IMG/VR virus record: IMGVR_UViG_2579778919_000006
Location: 1 to 42,066 of that record
Origin: a virus
Taxonomy: Duplodnaviria > Heunggongvirae > Uroviricota > Caudoviricetes
Length of the DNA: 42,066 nt
Reading direction: 5' to 3' (one strand)
The notes under the pieces were generated by a model that saw only the letters and a list, made by a program, of their open reading frames with translations, did no database searches and was not told where the DNA came from. Position numbers and translations under genes: made by a program. Below, one piece after another: positions 1,081 through 25,367 of the stretch; positions within the stretch are counted from its first letter, which is position 1, and the number at the start of each line of letters is the position of its first letter.

Positions 1081-2516
1081 GACCCCTGTTCCTGCTTTAA
1101 AGCCTCTTCCGTTTGTTTCTGTTTCTTTTTCTGATTCCAGATGCTACTCGCTGGCATTTCTACACGAACGCTGACGAACTGATCGGCCGGGATGTCAACC
1201 GGATCGCCATCAGCCAATCCATCACGCTCATTCCTGGCAAATGCTGGAGCCGAAGGATGTTCGCGGTGATAGGTTTTGACCAACACAGAACCATCGGCAT
1301 TAACCTCATAATCCAGCCAAATCAGCGGTTGTTTATTCCGGTCTGTGGGAATCTCAAACCCTCCGTCGATACCGCCCCAGGCAGCGTCTGAATTGAGTGA
1401 TTCACACCCATCAATGAGATATTGGCCTACATCCAGACGAGTGACCGTAACACCTTCTGATTCATCGTTAGTTTCATATCGTCCGTCACCGTAAATCTTC
1501 ACAATTGGTGACGCGATTTTGATAAACCCGTTGCTATCTACGGTTGTGTTGCTTGTATCACGCACTACGGCGAGATTGTACCAGGACTGAGAGTTGGGGT
1601 TATAAACCTTATAACCGAACCCACGTTTACCATTATTGTCGCCATAAAAACCTATTAGCTGCATTCGGGCGGCTTCATCGGCAGAGGTAATATCAATCCA
1701 TGCCCCTAAGGCTCCACCTTCAACCTGGCCAGTAATGAAGCCGGTACTGTTTTTCCAGTAAATGTTCGTCGGTGTATCACCAGGCGCAAACCGTGCTGTC
1801 TTTTGTCTTATGGCTCCAATGTTAGTACAGGCTCCCCAGTAATCTCCGGTGGTTGCCCCCGTTCCGCCATAACGGGTTCCGAGTGGTACCGGATTACCAT
1901 TATCCGAAACAACGACGCCCCATTCGTCTTTTCGTACGACAAGCGCATGATCCCGCGACGGGCCATAGACGATGCTCTGATCTTCCTGGGTAACGAATGT
2001 GCCTAAACCGAGGTTTGTTCGAGCGTCTTCTGCCTTCGTTGCCCCGGTCCCGCCCTGCGCAATAGAAAGCGCAGTAGTGAGTCCTTTCAGCTCCGTGATA
2101 TCGCTGTTTGCCCCCTTTCTGGCAAGTGCACCAATGCCCGGAATATTCACGGAAGCTCCGTTGATGGTAACGGTGATGGTCTGGTTTGCTGAGGTAGTGG
2201 CGAACGTCTCCCACGCGCCAATATTCTCGTCATATTCTTTGATGAGCTGCGACATTGCCTGGGCCAGTCCGTCGACGGAGATAATGTCTGACACCAGAAT
2301 GGCGTATTTCTGGCCGCTCAGCGCCGGAGAAGCTGCAGGCGTTACCGTCATTGACGTGGCGCTATTCACGGATGAAATCTGGAACATCTGAACCGGGTTA
2401 GACATGACAATAATCGTCTGGCCAGCGCGAACCTGGCTGGCCGGTGCAGTCCAGTTTGTACCGGAGCCGGTTGCGGTATTTCCGTTAATAGAGATAGTTC
2501 CGGTGCTATAAATCAT
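1077..2516 (-). CDS. phage tail fibre protein
   Basis: 479 aa, Gly/Thr/Ser/Asn-rich with tail-fibre-like N-terminus MIYSTGTISINGNTATGSG; downstream of J in the tail module; no tail fibre assembly gene follows. Confidence 0.7.
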   Translation of the reverse strand: MIYSTGTISINGNTATGSGTNWTAPASQVRAGQTIIVMSNPVQMFQISSVNSATSMTVTPAASPALSGQKYAILVSDIISVDGLAQAMSQLIKEYDENIGAWETFATTSANQTITVTINGASVNIPGIGALARKGANSDITELKGLTTALSIAQGGTGATKAEDARTNLGLGTFVTQEDQSIVYGPSRDHALVVRKDEWGVVVSDNGNPVPLGTRYGGTGATTGDYWGACTNIGAIRQKTARFAPGDTPTNIYWKNSTGFITGQVEGGALGAWIDITSADEAARMQLIGFYGDNNGKRGFGYKVYNPNSQSWYNLAVVRDTSNTTVDSNGFIKIASPIVKIYGDGRYETNDESEGVTVTRLDVGQYLIDGCESLNSDAAWGGIDGGFEIPTDRNKQPLIWLDYEVNADGSVLVKTYHREHPSAPAFARNERDGLADGDPVDIPADQFVSVRVEMPASSIWNQKKKQKQTEEALKQEQGS

Positions 2517-3334: not shown

Positions 3335-6300
3335 TTATGAGTAAGTAAACGATCCAGAACCTCTTGTTACAATCATTGTTGGACTTCTTAACCATCTATT
3401 AGTAGCACCCTCCTTAAATACGATTTTTGCAGTTACAGTTTCCGCAGTAACACCTTTAAAAGTGGCCATAACTGTACCAGACGTGGACAACATGCCGCCT
3501 TCCGTATTACGAACGGATGTGCCTGCGAATGCGCTTTTAGTAACACCATTCACGGTAATTTCCACCCCTAGTAACATCCCTGGATATTTAGGAACACCAG
3601 AAAGGTTAGCCATGACTGTGATGGTCTTAGTTGTATTAGCCGTATCCTTATAAGTGATTGTACGTGTCATATCGTACGTGCCACCTTCGCCGTATAAATC
3701 GTCAGCAACACCCATGTTGCATACATCACCAATAAAACTAGTAGCTTCTACAGTCCCTTTGAACTTACCGCTTGTTGCTTGTATCTCACCAGTAAATCTA
3801 CCGTCACTAGCATATACTACACCTCTGACGGTCACATTGTTGAATTCAGCATCTCCAGCTTTATTCAACTTCCAACCAGCAGAACCAGCTGCATAGTTGT
3901 TGGACTGGATGTAATTGCCGATTTTGGCGTTCTCAATGGTGCCGTCCTGGATGAAACTGGCCCGGATGAATGTCTGCCCGTTCTGGATCACGAACGGCAA
4001 AGCCACGCTGTTTCCGGCTGCCGTGGTGACGGCGAAGCGGTCAGCCAGGAAGATAACCTGCGACTGCATGCCGGATGGCGTATTCTCCACGCCGATCCCC
4101 ATCCCCGCGGCGTAATACTGACCGTTGCTGGAAACGCCAACCTTGATGTTATACATCGCGCTGAGGTCGCCATTAACGTTGGCTATCGCCTGAGCATTAG
4201 TGGTGATGGCTGAGGTATGCCCGTTCACCGTCGCCGTGATGCTGTTTACCTGCGTGGCCATAGCCTGCTGGTAATCGGAGAACGTCTGGTTCAGGCTGTT
4301 GATGGATGCCTTGTTGCTGTTAACGTCCGTCTGCAGGCTCAGCAGCGAGCGCGCCGTTGCCTCCCTGTCGTTGACAATCACCTCATCAATACGGTCCAGA
4401 TTCGCGCTGTTGCCGGCGACCGATGCAGACAACGTTTTACGCGCGGCTACCTGCGCCAGGTTGCCCTGAATAATTGCGATAGCAGAGTTCTTCACCCCGC
4501 CCGTCATGCCGTCCATAGACACGCTGATGCTGTCTATTCGCTGGCCCAGTGCGGTATCAGCAGTCGCAACAGTCTGCTCAAGCTCTGAGAGAGAAGACGA
4601 CACATCACCGACCGTGCTCGAAAGCTCATTAACACTGGTCTGAACCTGCCCAATGTCCTGCGCGTTTTTTGCGATTTCCTGCGCCTGGAGCTCAAGTTCA
4701 TCGTTGGCCTGTTTGATGTCGTCAGCCATGCCAGCAATTTTTTCGTTGCTGTCCACCGCGTTCTCGATCAGGTCTTTGAACGTATCGGAGTCTTTCATGT
4801 CCTCCAGGATTGCATCGGTGATATCGGATACATCGATGCTGGCCTGCCCGCGCACAAAGTCTGTATACCCTGATTCGTTTCCGCTGCGGTCCACCAGCTG
4901 CGCGCGGTACCAGAAAATTTGCCCAGCCTTTAGGCCCATCTGCTGATATTTGCGCTGCGGGTAAGGCACATCGGCCAGCAGCATGGCATCGTCTTCAGTA
5001 CCGGTCAGGCTGTACTGAATTTCAGTCTTCAGCGTGTCGTCGGTATTCGCCTGGAATCTCCAGTTCAGCTCGATACCGAACACCACGTTTTCAGAGGCGA
5101 TAAAGCCAACCGGCTTCGGTGGATTGCCCACTTTACCCGTCAGCGTTTTCTCTTCTGAATAGCCCCATCCGGATGAAATTTCTGCGGCATTGATTGCGCG
5201 CACCCGCACCAGGTAGCGCCCGGCATAAATCCCCGGGACGTCGAATGACGTGGTGGAGGTGCGCGGCACGTTAACCCAGTTCCCGTCGTTGCGGCGCCAT
5301 TGCGCTTCATAGGCGATAGCGTTCTGCGCCTGGTCCCAGCTCACGCGCATTGTTTCGACGCTGATATTTTGCTGAACCACGGAAAACGAGCTGATCACGA
5401 TATTCGCAGGCGGCGACTGGTTGCCCGGCGGGATCACGCTCACCGGCCGTTGGTCAATGATGGCTCCGGTATCGATACGGGCATATTTATCCGGGTCGTG
5501 CCATGCGCCGGTAATCGAGAAAGTGCCATCATTGTTATCGGAAACGCTGACAACACGATACTGCTGCGCGTAAAGCTCGTCAGATTCAACCACCCAAACA
5601 GCTTCGGCCTGTGGCGTCTCACTGTATGCCGTGGTGACTGTGACTGATTCCCCGTTCACGGCCTGAATGGTCCTGCTCTGCGACGCTCCGGAAGGCAGGT
5701 TGAGAATAAGGCGATCACCTGGTGCTGCATCAGCTACGCGGTCAAGTTTGATAACGCGACCGTTAACGGCGCTGATGCGGCCGCCCATAACCTTTCCGGA
5801 AAGCAGCTCGTCTGCCACGGCGATGATGTAGCCCGGCTGCGGAATGTTTCCGTCCAGCCCGACATCAAACGAAACAACGCGATCCTTGTTATTGGTGAGA
5901 ATACCCCAGCGCCCCTTTCGGTTCGCCTCTGACTGCCTGGTGCAGCCGATGGCTGTCATTTCCAGCTGATTGAAGCCGTACCGCGCCACCAGCGCCTGCT
6001 CAAATACCGGCTCCATCGCGTCGGCATAAGCGTTACCCGGGTCTGACCATGAAACCAGCGCTGTGGTGTAGCGGCTTTTCGTGGTGCTGCTCGAATAGGT
6101 GAAGCGACCGCCAACAACGTTAGCGCGCGTATAGCTGTAATCAACATCGCGCGGCATGTCAGCCAGGGCCACAATCTGATCCCCGCCCCAGTAGGTCATG
6201 CCACGGAAGATAGCGGCAAAATCACGCAGGACTGTGTAGGCGTCGTTCCGGTCCTGAATGTACACGTTGCAGGTATAGCGTGGTTCTGTACCGTTGCCCC

Positions 6301-7279
6301 CTTTGCCGTCTGGTACCATCTGATCACAATACTGAGCAACCTGATAAAGCGTCCATTTATCAATATTCGCAGCGGTCAAACGGTGCCCAAGGCCGAACCG
6401 GTCAGAAACAACCAGGTCGTAAAAAATCCACGCAGGGTTATCCGTCCATGCCCACTTAAACGCACCGGTCCATGTACCGCTATAAGTGCGGGTTTCAGGG
6501 TCGTAGGTATCTGGAACGCGGATAACGCGGCCGCGCGGTTCGCATGAAATTTGAGGAATAGAGCCGTTGAACTGGCTTGAGTCGAATTCGACGTAGAGCA
6601 GCGCGGTGTTCGGGTAGCGCAGTTTGGCGTCAATCACCTCGGTGAAGCTCTGCAGCATCATCGTGTCGCCGATCTTCGCGCTGTTGGCGTCAGAGGTAAT
6701 CTTACGCAGACGTATTGTCCATGTGCTGCCAGCCTGCGGTAAATCGATACGGTGGCTGCGCTCATAACCAGACGTCGTTTTGCCGGTCACGCTGGTATTG
6801 AGTACCGTCTGCCATGTGCCGCCGTCAGTCTGCAGGTCAATCGCATAATTGACCGAGTAACCCACCAGATCGCCGTCGTCTTCCTGTTTGAAAAGCGAGG
6901 GCCATTTAAGACGCAGGCGAACTGCTGAAAGCTGCGTATTGGTAAACGTGCGCGTCCAGGCTGTGGCACTTGATACCTCAGTTCCTACGCTGATCTCGTT
7001 TTCGGTACCGGGAATACCCTGAATATATTTTTGCGCCTGCGTTCCCGCGCGAAACTCCCACGTTACCCCGCTGAAGTTTTGGGAGCCGTCAGCATTCTCC
7101 AGCGCTGTTCCGTCCAGGTAGATATCTTTGCCGGTGAGCTGTCCAGCAAACTCCCCTTCCCCAAGCGCAACGAGGATTTTTGCCTTCGCTACAGATTGCA
7201 GATCATCAGGCTGTTCGGTAGGGGTTCGGGAACTTGAGCTGCCGCCCTTGCGGCCTTTTAACACTTTATCTGTAGCCAT
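3335..7279 (-). CDS. J: tail tip / host specificity protein J
   Basis: 1314 aa; N-terminal and central regions resemble lambda gpJ as I recall it; gene order after I; long divergent C-terminal region. Confidence 0.9.
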   Translation of the reverse strand: MATDKVLKGRKGGSSSSRTPTEQPDDLQSVAKAKILVALGEGEFAGQLTGKDIYLDGTALENADGSQNFSGVTWEFRAGTQAQKYIQGIPGTENEISVGTEVSSATAWTRTFTNTQLSAVRLRLKWPSLFKQEDDGDLVGYSVNYAIDLQTDGGTWQTVLNTSVTGKTTSGYERSHRIDLPQAGSTWTIRLRKITSDANSAKIGDTMMLQSFTEVIDAKLRYPNTALLYVEFDSSQFNGSIPQISCEPRGRVIRVPDTYDPETRTYSGTWTGAFKWAWTDNPAWIFYDLVVSDRFGLGHRLTAANIDKWTLYQVAQYCDQMVPDGKGGNGTEPRYTCNVYIQDRNDAYTVLRDFAAIFRGMTYWGGDQIVALADMPRDVDYSYTRANVVGGRFTYSSSTTKSRYTTALVSWSDPGNAYADAMEPVFEQALVARYGFNQLEMTAIGCTRQSEANRKGRWGILTNNKDRVVSFDVGLDGNIPQPGYIIAVADELLSGKVMGGRISAVNGRVIKLDRVADAAPGDRLILNLPSGASQSRTIQAVNGESVTVTTAYSETPQAEAVWVVESDELYAQQYRVVSVSDNNDGTFSITGAWHDPDKYARIDTGAIIDQRPVSVIPPGNQSPPANIVISSFSVVQQNISVETMRVSWDQAQNAIAYEAQWRRNDGNWVNVPRTSTTSFDVPGIYAGRYLVRVRAINAAEISSGWGYSEEKTLTGKVGNPPKPVGFIASENVVFGIELNWRFQANTDDTLKTEIQYSLTGTEDDAMLLADVPYPQRKYQQMGLKAGQIFWYRAQLVDRSGNESGYTDFVRGQASIDVSDITDAILEDMKDSDTFKDLIENAVDSNEKIAGMADDIKQANDELELQAQEIAKNAQDIGQVQTSVNELSSTVGDVSSSLSELEQTVATADTALGQRIDSISVSMDGMTGGVKNSAIAIIQGNLAQVAARKTLSASVAGNSANLDRIDEVIVNDREATARSLLSLQTDVNSNKASINSLNQTFSDYQQAMATQVNSITATVNGHTSAITTNAQAIANVNGDLSAMYNIKVGVSSNGQYYAAGMGIGVENTPSGMQSQVIFLADRFAVTTAAGNSVALPFVIQNGQTFIRASFIQDGTIENAKIGNYIQSNNYAAGSAGWKLNKAGDAEFNNVTVRGVVYASDGRFTGEIQATSGKFKGTVEATSFIGDVCNMGVADDLYGEGGTYDMTRTITYKDTANTTKTITVMANLSGVPKYPGMLLGVEITVNGVTKSAFAGTSVRNTEGGMLSTSGTVMATFKGVTAETVTAKIVFKEGATNRWLRSPTMIVTRGSGSFTYS

Positions 7280-7291
7280 ATTGCGCCCATA

Positions 7292-7315
7292 AAAAAGCCA
7301 CCCAAAGGTGGCTAC
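7292..7315 (-). terminator. intrinsic terminator 13 nt upstream of the J start codon
   Basis: perfect 7-bp stem agccacc-caaa-ggtggct followed on the minus strand by TTTTTTAT. Confidence 0.5.
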
Positions 7316-7444
7316 TGTCTGAATATCAGGATGTTACAAATCTAAATACCTGGTTATGTTGTGGATTCAGCCCGCCAGCGGTGGGACGCTGGTGAACTCA
7401 TAACAGGTGGAATGGCTGATTACCTCTGGAAAAAGGAGAAGTAA

Positions 7445-7705
7445 ATGGGTTCGATGTTAGAACTGGAAAAAGAAGTGGCAGAGCTTAAACAAAAGCTGCT
7501 TACGCATGAAATTGCAACTGGCCTGATTCTATCGGACATTGTGAAATTACTGGACATTGCCCGGCCAGGCGCACTCGATGCTCTGACTAAAAACTATCAG
7601 GCAGGGCAAGCAAAAATCCCAGAATCAGCTGCACGTAATGATCCGCACACAATTGATGCGTTCACGCGCATCCTTAAAGTTTTAGAGGTGGCATCAAAGA
7701 AATAA
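7445..7705 (+). CDS. hypothetical protein, antisense moron inside the tail operon
   Basis: 86-aa ORF with AAGGAG Shine-Dalgarno 6 nt before ATG; predicted helical; converges on and overlaps the 3' end of the minus-strand ORF at 7674-7991. Confidence 0.4.
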   Translation: MGSMLELEKEVAELKQKLLTHEIATGLILSDIVKLLDIARPGALDALTKNYQAGQAKIPESAARNDPHTIDAFTRILKVLEVASKK

Positions 7706-7991
7706 TTAAATCGAGCTTTTCATTGAATATTTCTTCATGAGTTTTAGCGGCCTCATTCTGGGCCGCTGTTACCGTTCCACCGAAAACCCCTGCATCACCC
7801 TGCGAAATCTTTCCCTCCTTTACTCGCAAACTCCAGCCATTACCGGTGATGGTCGAATGAATAGCGCCACCTGGCCGTAGTGCGTTCTGAATGGCGGAAT
7901 TGACGATTGCCGGGTTATGCAGCTCTGCTATCTCCACCTGCAGGCTCGCGATGGTTGCCTCAAGCATGCTCATGCGCTCTTCTAAAGTCAT
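7674..7991 (-). CDS. hypothetical protein between tail genes I and J
   Basis: start re-set to the ATG with GGAG Shine-Dalgarno (track ORF extends to 8093); coiled-coil-like N-terminus then IVNSAIQNALRPGGAI, a motif shared with the C-terminus of the 24747-25367 ORF. Confidence 0.45.
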   Translation of the reverse strand: MTLEERMSMLEATIASLQVEIAELHNPAIVNSAIQNALRPGGAIHSTITGNGWSLRVKEGKISQGDAGVFGGTVTAAQNEAAKTHEEIFNEKLDLIISLMPPLKL

Positions 7992-8028
7992 AGTTTTCTC
8001 CTGCCTATCAGCTAATAAGTTAATTAAT

Positions 8029-8619
8029 TTACTGTTGATCTTCGACATAAATTCCGGCAGAAATAATCGCTCCGCCGATTCGACGCTTACCATAAAGCAG
8101 AGGCACTGGGTAGCCTTGCGCTGCAGTGTTGGTTACCCCGCCAAACGCATACGATGCACGGTTATCTGCACTTTGTTTGCTGGCCAGCCCCGCTGGTTGA
8201 GGGGAAAGCATCTGAACAACCCCGCCAATCATCATTGCGGCACCGAATTTGTATAAGAATGGTGATGCCGCAGCCCAGGGTGTGAAATTAAGCACCGCCC
8301 CAACGGCAACCAGAACTGCACCAAGTATTGTCTGGAGTAATCCGGCCTTTTTGCTCCCGATAATCACCGGGACAATGCGAATGACATCGCCGGTGACCGG
8401 GTAACCCAGGTCATCAACTCCTATGTTTTTCTTTCCTTTAAAAATGGCAAAGGTTAGTCCGCGGCGCTTGCTGTTTACCATATAACTTTCAAACCCGGTG
8501 ATTGTTTTTGCGAGTGCTACACCTGCTTCAGAAACTTTACTGATAAGTCGCCAATGAGTTTTACCAAATATTTTACCGGGTTCGCCGCCGAGCTCAATTC
8601 GAGTCATTGCTTCAGACAT
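8029..8619 (-). CDS. I: tail assembly protein I
   Basis: 196 aa with RIVPV...GGVVQMLSPQP...YGKRRIGGAIISAGIYVEDQQ, the gpI pattern as I recall it. Confidence 0.8.
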   Translation of the reverse strand: MSEAMTRIELGGEPGKIFGKTHWRLISKVSEAGVALAKTITGFESYMVNSKRRGLTFAIFKGKKNIGVDDLGYPVTGDVIRIVPVIIGSKKAGLLQTILGAVLVAVGAVLNFTPWAAASPFLYKFGAAMMIGGVVQMLSPQPAGLASKQSADNRASYAFGGVTNTAAQGYPVPLLYGKRRIGGAIISAGIYVEDQQ

Positions 8620-8632
8620 ATAAACCTCTTAA

Positions 8633-8660
8633 TAATAAAAAACCCCGCCTGAGCGAGGTT
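8633..8660 (-). terminator. putative intrinsic terminator after the lipoprotein gene
   Basis: 6-bp stem with one G-U pair (cctcgc-tcag-gcgggg) followed by a T-run on the minus strand. Confidence 0.35.
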
Positions 8661-8677
8661 ATATATAATTGCTGCAT

Positions 8678-9091
8678 TCAAAATGCTGTAGGGTAGATAC
8701 CAAAATCACCGTTGGTTCCGTAACCAACTCTAAACATCAAAACCCCAGTATCTGTCACCTTACCCGACTGTTCGCTCATGCCTCCGCCACACATACCTTT
8801 GGGCCAAGCGCTAAAGATATGATCTCCAATTTTGGGATAGACCGTTACCTTTTGAGCTGTATCTAAGTCTGCGACCTCCTTGCCATCAACATAAACTCGG
8901 GTCATGCAGGCGCTGCCCATAAAACCAGAGTCTCGTTTGATTATTACCTTGCCAGTCCCTTCTTTTTTTACTAGCAGTGTATTGCTGATAACCTGTTTTG
9001 CAGGAACATCCTGTGCTTGTTCATTTGTCACCGGCTTAGTTGCACAACCGGCAACCATTAAGATGGAGGTAAAAACTAAAATTCTTTTCAT
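8678..9091 (-). CDS. predicted lipoprotein (moron)
   Basis: start re-set to MKRILVFTSILMVAGC, a lipoprotein signal peptide with lipobox and Cys; about 137 aa; no family recognised. Confidence 0.55.
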   Translation of the reverse strand: MKRILVFTSILMVAGCATKPVTNEQAQDVPAKQVISNTLLVKKEGTGKVIIKRDSGFMGSACMTRVYVDGKEVADLDTAQKVTVYPKIGDHIFSAWPKGMCGGGMSEQSGKVTDTGVLMFRVGYGTNGDFGIYPTAF

Positions 9092-9179
9092 ATCCCTATC
9101 CCCTTTGGTCAATTTTGCCAAAAGAGTAGCAGGGATCGAGCGGTAGCAAAACCGAATGTTATCTTGGTTCACGCGCCCT

Positions 9180-9689
9180 TTAAATACCGGGGAGATACAT
9201 CTGTACTTCATCAGCTACACGCTCCCGTGCTGTGTGTAGAAGCCGCTTGCGGCCACCAACACCCCACTTGGCCATCTGGCTGGCGCACTGGCTGATCGCT
9301 TTGGTTTCGGTGTTAATCACATGGTCGATTTTATTCAAGCGAGACATGGCATCGAACCCGCGACGCATTAGCATTTGAAATGTCTCATAGACTTTGATTT
9401 CAAAAAGCGGATTGAGCCAGGCTGCATAGCGTATAGCGATAAGTTCAAGCCCCCAGGAGCCCTGAAATGGTCCCCCCTTAATTGTCATAACCGATGCGAT
9501 TTTCTTCGCATCGCTCAAGGCTTGAACAAATCGCCTTACTTGCTTGGTTTTGAGAAACTCACCTGGTCGCTGTGATTCAGTGGCTTTGCCTTCAGCCACC
9601 GCTGCGGCGTGGAGATCATTAAGATTATAACGTCCTTCGTTATCGACACGAACTGATACGCCGTTTACAGATACGGTTGGATATTGCAT
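9180..9689 (-). CDS. KilA-N domain protein
   Basis: N-terminal VNGVSVRVDNEGRYNLNDLHAAA...GSWGLELIAIRYAAWLNPLFEIKV fits the KilA-N DNA-binding domain pattern; C-terminal half unassigned. Confidence 0.6.
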   Translation of the reverse strand: MQYPTVSVNGVSVRVDNEGRYNLNDLHAAAVAEGKATESQRPGEFLKTKQVRRFVQALSDAKKIASVMTIKGGPFQGSWGLELIAIRYAAWLNPLFEIKVYETFQMLMRRGFDAMSRLNKIDHVINTETKAISQCASQMAKWGVGGRKRLLHTARERVADEVQMYLPGI

Positions 9690-9830
9690 ATCGGATTACC
9701 TTTTAGTGATGAACCTTGTCGCACAGGAAAACGGCCCCAAGAAGGCTCCGACAGCCAGCCGGTTCCTCAAGGTGCATCCTGAAAGGTTCTTGGTTTGAAT
9801 TGCGCGTGCGGTGCGCGGTGAAATGCGGGG

Positions 9831-9854
9831 TTTAAAAAAACCCACCTGAGTGGG
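9831..9854 (-). terminator. intrinsic terminator immediately after K
   Basis: stem cccac-ctga-gtggg followed on the minus strand by TTTTTTTAAA, directly after the K stop codon. Confidence 0.55.
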
Positions 9855-10565
9855 CTATAGAAGCGTTTTATATCTGACGATCTTCATCGTCCTTTCCTGC
9901 CAGTAGCCACCATACGGCACGCGCTGGCTCAGATGTCCGTACAGGTGGTGCAGCAGCATATTTCCCTCCAGCAGAATTCCCGCGTGGTTCCACTTATCAG
10001 CCTGGACCTGCATGATCACCATATCGCCGGGTTTCGGTGGCCCGTCGAATTCCCGGAAACCGCACTCATACCAGCAATCCTGATAGAAGTTGTCCGGATA
10101 TTCGTTTTCCCACCAGGGATAATCAACCCGGTAATCGTGGAGTTCGATACCATGCGTTTGCCGAAAATAGCTCATTACCAGCCCCCAGCAGTCGAAGTGT
10201 CCAAGCACAAACGGACGCTCCAGCAGCGGCAGTTCTCCGCGCGGCTGGATGGTGCGTAAATCCCCCTCCGGCCAGCTCACAATATGCCAGGGTAAAAGCG
10301 TTGCGTCGCATTGCGCTTTATCCAGTTCGCTCGGTTGCGTTGTGGCGTCAGGGTGACTGTGAACGATGGCGATCACCGTACCCCAGTCCTCAGCAGCGGC
10401 ATAGTCTTCTGGCGACAGGTGAAAATGTTCTGTCGGCTCGGTAGCGAGGTTACTACATGGAAAATATTTCTCTACCCGGCTCTTTTGCGCCACCACGCCG
10501 CAACACTCACGAGGATATTCAGCTGCAGCATGCGCCATAATCGCATCGATGGTTTTCTGACGCAT
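9855..10565 (-). CDS. K: tail assembly protein K (MPN/JAMM plus NlpC/P60 domains)
   Basis: HSHP motif and C-terminal Cys/His-containing segment; position between L and I. Confidence 0.85.
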   Translation of the reverse strand: MRQKTIDAIMAHAAAEYPRECCGVVAQKSRVEKYFPCSNLATEPTEHFHLSPEDYAAAEDWGTVIAIVHSHPDATTQPSELDKAQCDATLLPWHIVSWPEGDLRTIQPRGELPLLERPFVLGHFDCWGLVMSYFRQTHGIELHDYRVDYPWWENEYPDNFYQDCWYECGFREFDGPPKPGDMVIMQVQADKWNHAGILLEGNMLLHHLYGHLSQRVPYGGYWQERTMKIVRYKTLL

Positions 10566-24746: not shown

Positions 24747-25367
24747 TCAACGCCCTCTTTGTTGAACCCATATTGCACCTCCAGGCTTTAGCGCGTTGCG
24801 GATTGCATCGTTTACAGCATCGTGCATCGCTTGTTTCAGGCCGGTGAGTGAGGCTGTTTGTGCATCGATATTTACTTGTATTGCCGTGAGCAGATCGCTT
24901 TCACGTACAGCATCAATGACGGCCTGCGTCATTTCATCGCCAAGCTTAAACTTCACCTTCGAGGCTGATACCACGGCGTTTCCGACGGTTGATCGAGCGG
25001 CTTCATTTACCTTCAAGGATTCAGCTTTAAACTCGGCCTTTCTTTGCCCATCTTCAACTCCAACAGCCATACCGGCAGCGTGCTCTATGCCATTATTGTT
25101 GATATTCAACTTCACGTTATAGTTCGCAGATACAATGCCACTACCAATAAAGGCATCTTTGATAAAGACCTTGCCATCTTTGACGCCAATAGCCCATCCC
25201 GTGGCTTTATCTTCTGTTACTCGTTCAATGCGGAAACTGAATGGACTCTTTTCATAAAGCCCCATGGCAATCGTTCTTTTCCCATCACGATCATAACGGG
25301 CTGTATACTCAGCCGTTTGAAGCTCATGGCCATCGTCACGTAATATGAGCACCATATCTTTATTCAT
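24747..25367 (-). CDS. hypothetical protein with segments resembling the distal region of J
   Basis: start re-set to MNKDMVLIL (AGGAAA Shine-Dalgarno); ANYNVKLNINNNGIEHAAGMAVGVEDG and KVFIKDAFIGSGIV resemble J segments AMYNIKVGVSSNGQYYAAGMGIGVEN and TFIRASFIQDGTI; C-terminus AVNDAIRNALKPGGAI. Confidence 0.5.
   Translation of the reverse strand: MNKDMVLILRDDGHELQTAEYTARYDRDGKRTIAMGLYEKSPFSFRIERVTEDKATGWAIGVKDGKVFIKDAFIGSGIVSANYNVKLNINNNGIEHAAGMAVGVEDGQRKAEFKAESLKVNEAARSTVGNAVVSASKVKFKLGDEMTQAVIDAVRESDLLTAIQVNIDAQTASLTGLKQAMHDAVNDAIRNALKPGGAIWVQQRGR

Follow-up and report, generated by a model that had tools for sequence, protein, structure and literature searches.

Between tail genes I and J, the window, by which we mean the whole 42,066-nucleotide (nt) HK97/HK022-like prophage sequence analyzed here (IMG/VR record IMGVR_UViG_2579778919_000006), carries a segment at about 7291–8017 that is probably a mobile accessory cassette of two genes, which for HK97 are called a "moron" and a "reverse moron"; the reverse gene would be expressed in lysogeny and the forward one late. 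Most likely, an accessory gene expressed in the lysogen is paired here with a late-expressed partner, in an arrangement like that of Tab and anti-Tab of phage JBD26. The forward gene is an open reading frame (ORF) of 105 amino acids (aa) that reads with the tail operon, and the reverse gene, which we also call the cargo, encodes 86 aa on the opposite strand (Table 1). The architecture of the I–J gap is already known, being annotated in the HK97 record as a "moron product" (gp22) and a "reverse moron product" (gp23) with terminators. What we did not find in Rfam or the searchable literature are a portable leader upstream of the reverse gene, the two-ended organization of the cassette and a tape-measure-like motif in the forward ORF.

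Table 1. Coordinates of the cassette and its flanking genes in the window
Feature	Positions	Strand	Source or remark
J	3335–7279	minus	tail gene; start codon ATG at 7279
I	8029–8619	minus	tail gene
Forward ORF, 105 aa	7674–7991	minus	reads with tail operon; ORF list
Reverse ("cargo") gene, 86 aa	7445–7705	plus	ORF list
Intrinsic terminator AGCCACC-TTTG-GGTGGCT then TTTTTT	7291–7313	minus	terminator scan; 11–13 nt before J start
Promoter/operator-like region of reverse gene	7314–7365	plus	alignments, conservation profile
Structured 5' leader of reverse gene	7366–7444	plus	covariance model, pair counts
Hairpin UAGCGGCCU-CAUUCU-GGGCCGCUG	7745–7768	plus	sliding folds, -15.7 kcal/mol
Cassette left end: small GNRA-type hairpin (GCUGAUAGGC) and Shine-Dalgarno site AGGAG	7992–8017	minus	nucleotide conservation

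Comparison with related phages delimits the insert. In a megablast of 7200–8100 against phage records, HK022, HK97 and mEp506 match both flanks and part of the middle, while HK75, mEp234, HK446, HK106, HK140, mEpX1/X2 and mEp235 match the flanks only (22% of the query). The I–J gap of HK75 consists of the terminator alone, annotated as "terminator", and the hairpin preceding J is thus present at empty sites too; measured against this phage, the insert runs from about 7314 to 8017. In HK97, HK022 and mEp506 this position is taken by different gene pairs, which are gp22 and "srb" (gp23) in HK022 and a similar pair in mEp506. An earlier sequence-only reading of this DNA, which took the segment for an insert absent from lambda and possibly variable among its relatives, is borne out by these comparisons. 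The possibility it raised against itself, that the segment is a 5' extension of J, is rejected: the J start and the first 526 residues are 99–100% identical to J of HK97 and HK022, and the 166-nt spacing between the J start and the reverse ATG is kept in both phages.

The insert has several of the properties expected of a moron. It is extra DNA between conserved genes, missing from close relatives; it has terminators of its own, on the minus strand at 7313–7291 and, with a weaker tail, the plus-strand hairpin at 7745–7768; and its base composition is unlike that of its flanks, with a GC content of 0.44–0.48 (7300–7800) as against 0.53–0.57 in J. A transposable element or insertion sequence is rejected, as no transposon-like ends flank the insert: a search of 7200–8120 for terminal inverted repeats and a target-site duplication gave only short repeats at chance level. 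The exact insert is rare, occurring in 3 of 5,426 complete E. coli genomes; strains VREC0864 and MB06232 of E. coli carry it.

The local geometry given in the sequence-only reading stands. The Shine-Dalgarno site of the forward ORF (AGGAG) lies 6 nt before its ATG, that of the reverse gene (AAGGAG) is at 7433–7438, the two frames converge and overlap by 32 nt (7674–7705), and a hairpin terminator does lie just upstream of the J start. This terminator faces the tail-operon direction and abuts the reverse promoter region. The claim that no terminator separates I from the forward ORF holds in practice, the lone candidate being a terminator-like hairpin inside the 3' end of I (8078–8054) that is weak, has a poor T-tail and is probably due to chance. 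No promoter was found for the forward ORF, which follows I without a gap of its own and should thus be readable from the late tail transcript only. One emphasis has to be reversed: both genes are present, but the plus-strand ORF, which had been treated as secondary to an extra tail-strand gene, is the better supported of the two.

Its 86-aa product matches phrog_23209 end to end (E 5.5e-59), is identical to WP_008323354.1 and is found as the exact protein on 453 contigs; 13 homologues, down to 43% identity, come from E. coli, Citrobacter and metagenomes. In comparison with the Citrobacter copy, the ratio of nonsynonymous to synonymous substitution rates (dN/dS) is 0.03, with 10, 6 and 37 differences at the first, second and third codon positions, which indicates a real gene under strong purifying selection at the protein level. 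An NDPH(T) motif is invariant in the protein alignment. One homologue, P0013, is a frameshifted copy that leaves the frame after 57 identical residues, a hint that the gene decays on occasion. The AlphaFold2 model has three helices (predicted local distance difference test, pLDDT, 88) and neither a signal peptide nor a transmembrane segment could be read from the sequence, so that the protein is predicted to be soluble and helical.

Similarity searches do not assign a function to this protein. Pfam, NCBIfam and PDB sequence searches returned no match for it, and when the model was compared with PDB and BFVD by Foldseek, no hit had an E below 0.4. In tblastn, neither cassette protein matched the phage records of INPHARED, homologues being found in prophages and metagenomes only. 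The reverse gene of mEp506 carries the label DUF2594/YecF-like; this was rejected as a guide to the 86-aa protein, which has no Pfam hit, the mEp506-like cluster not being among the significant hhalign pairs.

The reverse gene looks like an autonomous unit with a promoter-like region, a structured leader and a downstream hairpin. The hairpin begins 39 nt past the cargo stop codon and, with its weak T-tail, is probably where the reverse transcript terminates; about half of 86 distinct cassettes have, behind the cargo gene, a hairpin followed by a T-rich stretch. In the promoter-like region, a –10-like hexamer, TATGTT, lies at 7355–7360, and transcription is predicted to start near 7367. In a profile of 85 unique copies, no positions are better conserved than T1, A2 and T6 of this hexamer, which occupies precisely –12 to –7 when counted from TCAGCC. 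A TAnnnT at this distance from the conserved UCAGCC is the signature of a –10 element with a start at the conserved block. Two palindromes in the same region, TACTG-N9-CAGG and CAGG-N19-CCTGG, look like operator sites for some regulator. At the upstream edge of the element (7314–7334, TACTGTCTGAATATCAGG), the CTG-N9-CAG palindrome is kept in nearly all copies. A LexA box was rejected for the TACTG-N9-CAG palindrome on account of its N9 rather than N10 spacing, and sigma-54, sigma-32 and CII-type promoters were rejected by eye, since the conserved positions do not fit them.

The leader consists, in order, of an invariant UCAGCC, a hairpin P2 (CGCCAGCG/CGCUGGUG, loop GUGGGA), a hairpin P3 (CAGGUGG/CCUCUG, with GGCUGA in its loop) and the Shine-Dalgarno site of the reverse gene. 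A covariance model of 75 copies (R1) matches 7366–7436 with 80 bits (E 5e-23), which is the sole copy in the window, and finds one copy in HK022 with 91 bits. Across the 75 sequences, 93% of the cells are paired, against 28–49% in slid controls. P2 is 98% paired and has UA, CG and UG at one pair and UG, CG and UA at another; P3 is 82% paired, with both sides changed at four pairs. The U-G intermediates fit the plus strand only. We therefore regard the leader as a candidate cis-regulatory RNA in which covariation supports both P2 and P3, on the plus strand. Its 5' UCAGCC and the GGCUGA of the P3 loop, both invariant, are complementary and may form a pseudoknot.

For this leader, Rfam 15 gave no family at its gathering score, the best being rseX, MicA and isrD at 14–23 bits against 37–50, on the minus strand over the terminator, and literature searches with a 19-nt core of the element, "reverse moron" and "HK022 srb" found nothing relevant. 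A put-like antiterminator RNA was rejected, as HK022 has no second R1 copy and none near PL/PR. A switch in which CCUCU pairs with the Shine-Dalgarno site fits the window but not most of the other copies, and was not adopted. In leader variants L013, L019, L050, L115 and L008, P2 is followed directly by UUUU(A), the P3 region being replaced and GGCUGA kept; this arrangement looks like an intrinsic terminator or attenuator.

The promoter-leader element is reused across prophages. About 130 nt (7314–7444) are conserved among the window, HK97, HK022, mEp506 and loci of Leclercia, Citrobacter and metagenomes, while the ORFs behind them differ. The 19-nt core, TCAGCCCGYCAGYGGTRGG, occurs in at least 120 IMG/VR stretches, and is always followed, about 75 nt further on, by a small ORF that has a Shine-Dalgarno site. 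These ORFs form 23 BLAST clusters, few pairs of which are related by hhalign, and the leader precedes at least 15 unrelated small genes; the clusters include DUF1883 proteins, a 154-aa aspartic-protease-like protein, srb-like and mEp506-like proteins, HK97 gp23 and the family of the window. When R1 was run on one genome per bacterial species, it gave 18 genuine hits of 45–88 bits, all of them in Enterobacteriaceae (Citrobacter, Enterobacter, Atlantibacter, Kluyvera, Phytobacter, Pseudocitrobacter and Dryocola), chance pattern matches reaching no more than 24 bits. Among complete E. coli genomes, about 1% contain the element, with nothing annotated under it.

Wherever the neighbors can be identified, the element and its ORF are antisense to tail genes. 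The sites occupied are I|J, M|L and H|M, positions downstream of tape-measure genes in other siphophages, and the vicinity of fiber genes. On its upstream side, the element usually borders directly on a hairpin terminator that faces the tail-operon direction, and the stems of these terminators at other junctions covary (GGTGGC or GGCGGC). Some loci carry several copies: L018 has two leaders 2 kb apart, with an srb-like gene and the gene for the 154-aa aspartic-protease-like protein as cargo, and L133, L170 and L186, which are one Enterobacter bugandensis contig, belong to cases with two to three copies per prophage or genome, each with a different cargo. In L042 (1242–1333), the leader is broken off after GGCTGATT and is followed by an ORF like OrfA of the IS3 family (MPMSGKRYPEEFKTEAVKQV...), and it appears that an insertion sequence has landed in the leader.

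The cassette has a second conserved end, on the side of I. This left end begins about 10 nt after the I stop codon, and a block of about 55 nt comprising its small hairpin, the Shine-Dalgarno site, the ATG and the codons for MTLEERVEALE is conserved in nucleotides among 28 unique copies with unrelated cargo. An independent scan of viral contigs with this block found at least 120 stretches, and among the 77 hits with enough flanking DNA, 72 have the leader 340–595 nt downstream on the other strand. The unit is thus a two-ended cassette with a variable interior. The longest open minus-strand frame at this locus has 139 aa and starts at 8093, and the RefSeq/PGAP call has 124 aa and starts at 8048; relatives, however, conserve the ATG of the 105-aa ORF, and it is this ATG that a Shine-Dalgarno site precedes. 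This ORF, which matches phrog_22477 (E 2.5e-73), begins with MTLEERMSML... and an N-terminal coiled coil, continues with a motif resembling the C-terminus of tape-measure proteins (IVNSAIQNALRPGGAI), and then has a fiber-like segment, GW...GDAGVFGG. By sequence, it belongs to a mosaic "MTLEERVEALE" family that forms the left end of the cassettes, of which we collected 51 distinct ORFs of 43–129 aa. A sister subtype (EFKVGFPKENG...) has a dN/dS of 0.13–0.37, a clear sign of purifying selection, and this marks the forward-ORF class as protein-coding. The pair of forward and reverse genes of the window's type is found at three different junctions (loci L006, L007 and L008).

The plus-strand hairpin behind the cargo gene also bears on how the forward ORF is to be read, as its other strand encodes TAAQNEAA of the forward protein, the alanine codons being GCG GCC ... 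GCC GCT. That the hairpin is built of alanine codons explains the "TAAxNxAA" peptide common to otherwise different forward ORFs, and it may be the RNA hairpin, and not the protein, that the conservation of this peptide reflects.

The combination of a coiled coil with ..I..A.RPGG.I/L is common to several forward variants. In the sequence-only reading, the motif of the 105-aa ORF had been noticed at the end of a 206-aa protein encoded elsewhere in the window, and this likeness is upheld by two local BLASTP matches, one over a ...VNxAIxNALxPGGAI segment (E 1e-6) and the other over a GW..VKxGK segment (E 5e-5). A profile of the forward ORFs matches the C-terminus of the 206-aa protein with a probability of 94.8% (E 5e-8) and that of the window's tape-measure protein with 39% (E 3e-4). 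The latter C-terminus aligns to residues 736–848 of lambda gpH, and in the lambda virion gpH 818–842 forms a three-helix coiled coil on the gpI tripod in the lumen of the tail tip (PMC10721106). The forward ORF, lying between I and J, thus appears to carry a copy of a gpI-contacting element, and its likeness to the C-terminal helix of gpH suggests that the process it touches is probably tail-tip or tape-measure assembly. BLASTP found no similarity between the 105-aa ORF and J.

The 206-aa protein itself (24747–25367, minus strand; phrog_29765) is encoded between the lysis genes and the small terminase gene. It contains a fragment of a J-type Phage_Tail_Tip domain (Pfam, E 5e-6), and its C-terminus (…AVNDAIRNALKPGGAIWVQQRGR) is a close match to the very end of the window's tape-measure protein (…SVNDGIARAIQPGGLIWNANNRR; E 5e-5). 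HK022 gp73, which is encoded at the equivalent position, was considered as a homologue, and no relation was found.

The position and motif of the forward ORF also allow another explanation, in which its product is a dispensable accessory of tail-tip assembly or structure, a trimeric coiled coil docking on gpI/gpJ as a mimic of the tape-measure C-terminus, while the reverse gene is an independent lysogenic-conversion gene acting on host physiology and not on phages. The forward ORF lies between I and J and is co-transcribed with both, the helix that it resembles contacts gpI in lambda, there are weak hits to a tail-tip fiber chain (7z4b, E 0.07) and to fiber-like repeats, and forward and cargo types are shuffled, all of which this explanation would accommodate. 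Yet the forward family also occurs at the H|M and M|L junctions and in non-lambda siphophages, where it is tied to the reverse unit at the frequency given above, a tie that two unrelated functions would not lead one to expect. The motif is missing from many forward variants, which are no more than helices of about 50 aa, and infectious relatives such as HK75 lack the ORF altogether. We thus consider a tail-tip accessory with an unrelated neighbor to be improbable.

As to how a lysogeny-expressed gene and a late partner would work together, we propose the following. In the lysogen, where the late operon is silent, the reverse gene would be transcribed from its own putative promoter, and the terminator at 7313–7291 would shield this promoter from stray tail-strand transcription. 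Upon induction, Q-antiterminated late transcription would read through the terminator into the reverse unit, and the reverse gene would then be shut down by collision and antisense pairing, the forward protein being made at this stage only. By analogy with JBD26, the pair would act like Tab and anti-Tab, with an accessory, probably anti-phage, protein made in lysogeny and a late partner that spares the prophage's own assembly.

A precedent for such a pair is Pseudomonas phage JBD26. Its gp31 (Tab), a blocker of the tail assembly of invading phages, is read from a promoter of its own on the reverse strand, gp30 (anti-Tab) being a late-strand gene; Tab senses and targets the tape-measure C-terminus, and anti-Tab binds and neutralizes Tab (PMC10884400). 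In the JBD26 locus among our sequences (L195), gp30 lies at 1578–1829 (plus) and gp31 at 1783–2034 (minus). Both systems place two small genes between conserved late genes, with the defense gene of JBD26 on the reverse strand behind its own promoter, as our cargo is behind a putative one, and anti-Tab directly after the preceding late gene, as the 105-aa ORF is after I. The convergent 3' overlap is 47 nt in JBD26 and 32 nt in the window. Whereas Tab senses a tape-measure C-terminus, it is the late-strand partner that carries a motif like that terminus in the window. The two also differ in location (small/large terminase junction versus I/J) and host clade, and no conserved portable leader has been described for JBD26. 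We conclude that the cassette may resemble Tab/anti-Tab in its mode of action, while not being a member of that family.

Other known systems share parts of the arrangement. The pairs of HK97 and HK022 (gp22/gp23 and gp22/srb; GenBank AF069529, AF069308; PMC3594210) agree with the window in junction and orientations; their genes, too, overlap convergently, J is preceded by the same terminator, and the reverse ATG lies at the same distance from the J start. The promoter-leader element also stands upstream of their reverse genes. However, the products of HK97 gp23 and HK022 srb are unrelated to the 86-aa protein, falling into different PHROGs (hhalign 0.8% for gp23 and 5.5% for srb), and the forward ORFs lack the MTLEERVEALE start. 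No function is reported for the proteins of these pairs in the searchable literature. In Staphylococcus aureus phage 80alpha, the tha/ith locus is a noncontiguous operon in which an antisense-nested gene gives mutually exclusive lysogenic and lytic expression, as demonstrated experimentally (PMC11087260). A phage operon with an antisense gene nested in it, transcribed from a separate promoter, is what 80alpha has and what we propose for the window, but the nested gene of 80alpha is an inhibitor within the lysogeny operon, that of the window lies in the late tail operon, and there is no homology between them. Small accessory genes among the tail genes of this phage group also include HK97 gp15 and the Cor lipoprotein, moron-encoded superinfection exclusion proteins that the prophage expresses and that act on incoming phages (PMC3594210). 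These are membrane or lipoprotein factors encoded on the tail strand, whereas the 86-aa protein is modeled as soluble and is encoded on the opposite strand.

Prophage transcripts antisense to late structural genes, made independently of them, are known from STnc6030 of Salmonella prophage BTP1 and STMMW_20121 of ST64B, and STnc6030 is an antisense RNA with no ORF above 60 aa that confers exclusion (PMC7067206). With this precedent, it could be argued that the main role of the window's plus-strand transcript is that of a cis-antisense RNA directed at the late tail mRNA (the forward ORF and I), limiting leaky tail-gene expression in the lysogen or excluding superinfecting relatives with shared sequence, and that the 86-aa product is secondary. 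The transcript does run antisense to the tail operon and shares 32 nt or more with the forward ORF, and the weak T-tail of the downstream hairpin makes read-through into I plausible. Against this stand the strong purifying selection on the 86-aa protein and the conservation of its Shine-Dalgarno site. Moreover, the leader drives unrelated ORFs at different junctions, so that what is conserved is coding capacity and not the target, and STnc6030, in contrast to the window, is non-coding. A predominantly antisense role therefore seems to us very improbable.

Several results weigh against our own account of a lysogeny-expressed gene with a late partner. On the side of expression, a scan for consensus sigma-70 promoters found none upstream of the reverse gene, the –35 region is non-canonical in the conservation profile, and we infer where transcription starts, that expression is specific to the lysogen and that it is shut off once the prophage is induced. 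On the side of function, PADLOC-DB 2.0 has no defense family for either protein at E up to 0.1, and neither is matched in Pfam, NCBIfam, PDB sequences or the fold library; for the 105-aa ORF, PDB sequence searches gave designed coiled coils and the weak tail-tip fiber hit only. Comparison with Tab and anti-Tab gave a BLASTP E of 1.9 for one pair, no alignment for the other and an hhalign value of 0.1%, and the match of the motif to the tape-measure protein is as short (22 columns) as its 39% probability is low. Forward and cargo types are shuffled, a Leclercia locus combining the identical cargo with a forward ORF that lacks the RPGG motif, and this argues against tight pairwise co-evolution.

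The remaining points concern the forward ORF. Among close relatives of its subtype, dN/dS is 0.6–1.05 with even codon positions, on 4–12 differences that make the ratio uninformative; the AlphaFold2 monomer has a pLDDT of 56; and the last 30 or so codons are simply what lies opposite the cargo terminator and the 3' end of the cargo gene, the C-terminal residues that they encode changing with the cassette type. It could therefore be that only the reverse gene is functional, as a single-gene reverse moron, and that the 105-aa ORF is a non-functional or decaying mosaic in which a conserved start is fused to fiber-like and tape-measure-like fragments, open by chance. A dN/dS near 1, a structure model of low confidence and an antisense C-terminal third are what such a mosaic would be expected to have. 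The subtype has 7 relatives only among 1.8 billion representative proteins, and its left end is conserved in nucleotides, non-coding bases included, as a recombination arm would be. However, the forward ORF is open in all 51 distinct variants, its N-terminal coiled-coil heptads are kept across deep divergence, the strong Shine-Dalgarno site and the ATG are conserved, and the RPGG motif recurs in several variants that are otherwise different. The purifying selection on the sister subtype likewise speaks for a protein. We consider decay of the forward ORF to be unlikely, if less so than the two explanations discussed above.

Beyond the paired-gene account, a bolder and doubtful, though possible, view is that the cassettes constitute an undescribed family of two-ended, exchangeable units of Enterobacteriaceae siphophage prophages. 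Here, the portable promoter and the structured, possibly pseudoknotted leader would give lysogeny-specific expression, and the left end would supply a late coiled coil. Invading phages would be blocked by the reverse protein at the stage of tail-tip or tape-measure assembly, and the forward protein, as a tape-measure mimic on gpI, would neutralize the reverse one in the lytic cycle of the prophage itself.

It is mainly through morons that prophages alter their hosts, and the I–J reverse morons of HK97 and HK022 have been without an assigned function or regulatory logic since 2000. The covariance model, together with two sequence patterns, retrieves hundreds of such units with at least 15 unrelated small-protein families, and antisense nesting with a partner mimicking the tape-measure C-terminus offers a testable idea of how expression could be on in lysogeny and off in lysis. 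If defense and counter-defense are indeed at work, the principle of Tab/anti-Tab would extend from Mu-like phages of Pseudomonas to enterobacterial lambdoid phages, with the gpI/tape-measure contact as the target, and the cargo families behind the leader would be a reservoir of new small anti-phage, or host-modifying, proteins. If not, the locus would be an ordinary variable accessory insert.

The I–J cassette is not the only accessory insertion among the tail genes of the window. The K–I junction (8641–9856) holds further inserts on the tail strand, a gene with a KilA-N domain (9180–9689) and a lipoprotein-like gene (8678–9211), each followed by a minus-strand terminator (9856–9839 and 8660–8641 being the two). 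Together with the cassette, the tail operon of this prophage thus holds at least three accessory insertions.

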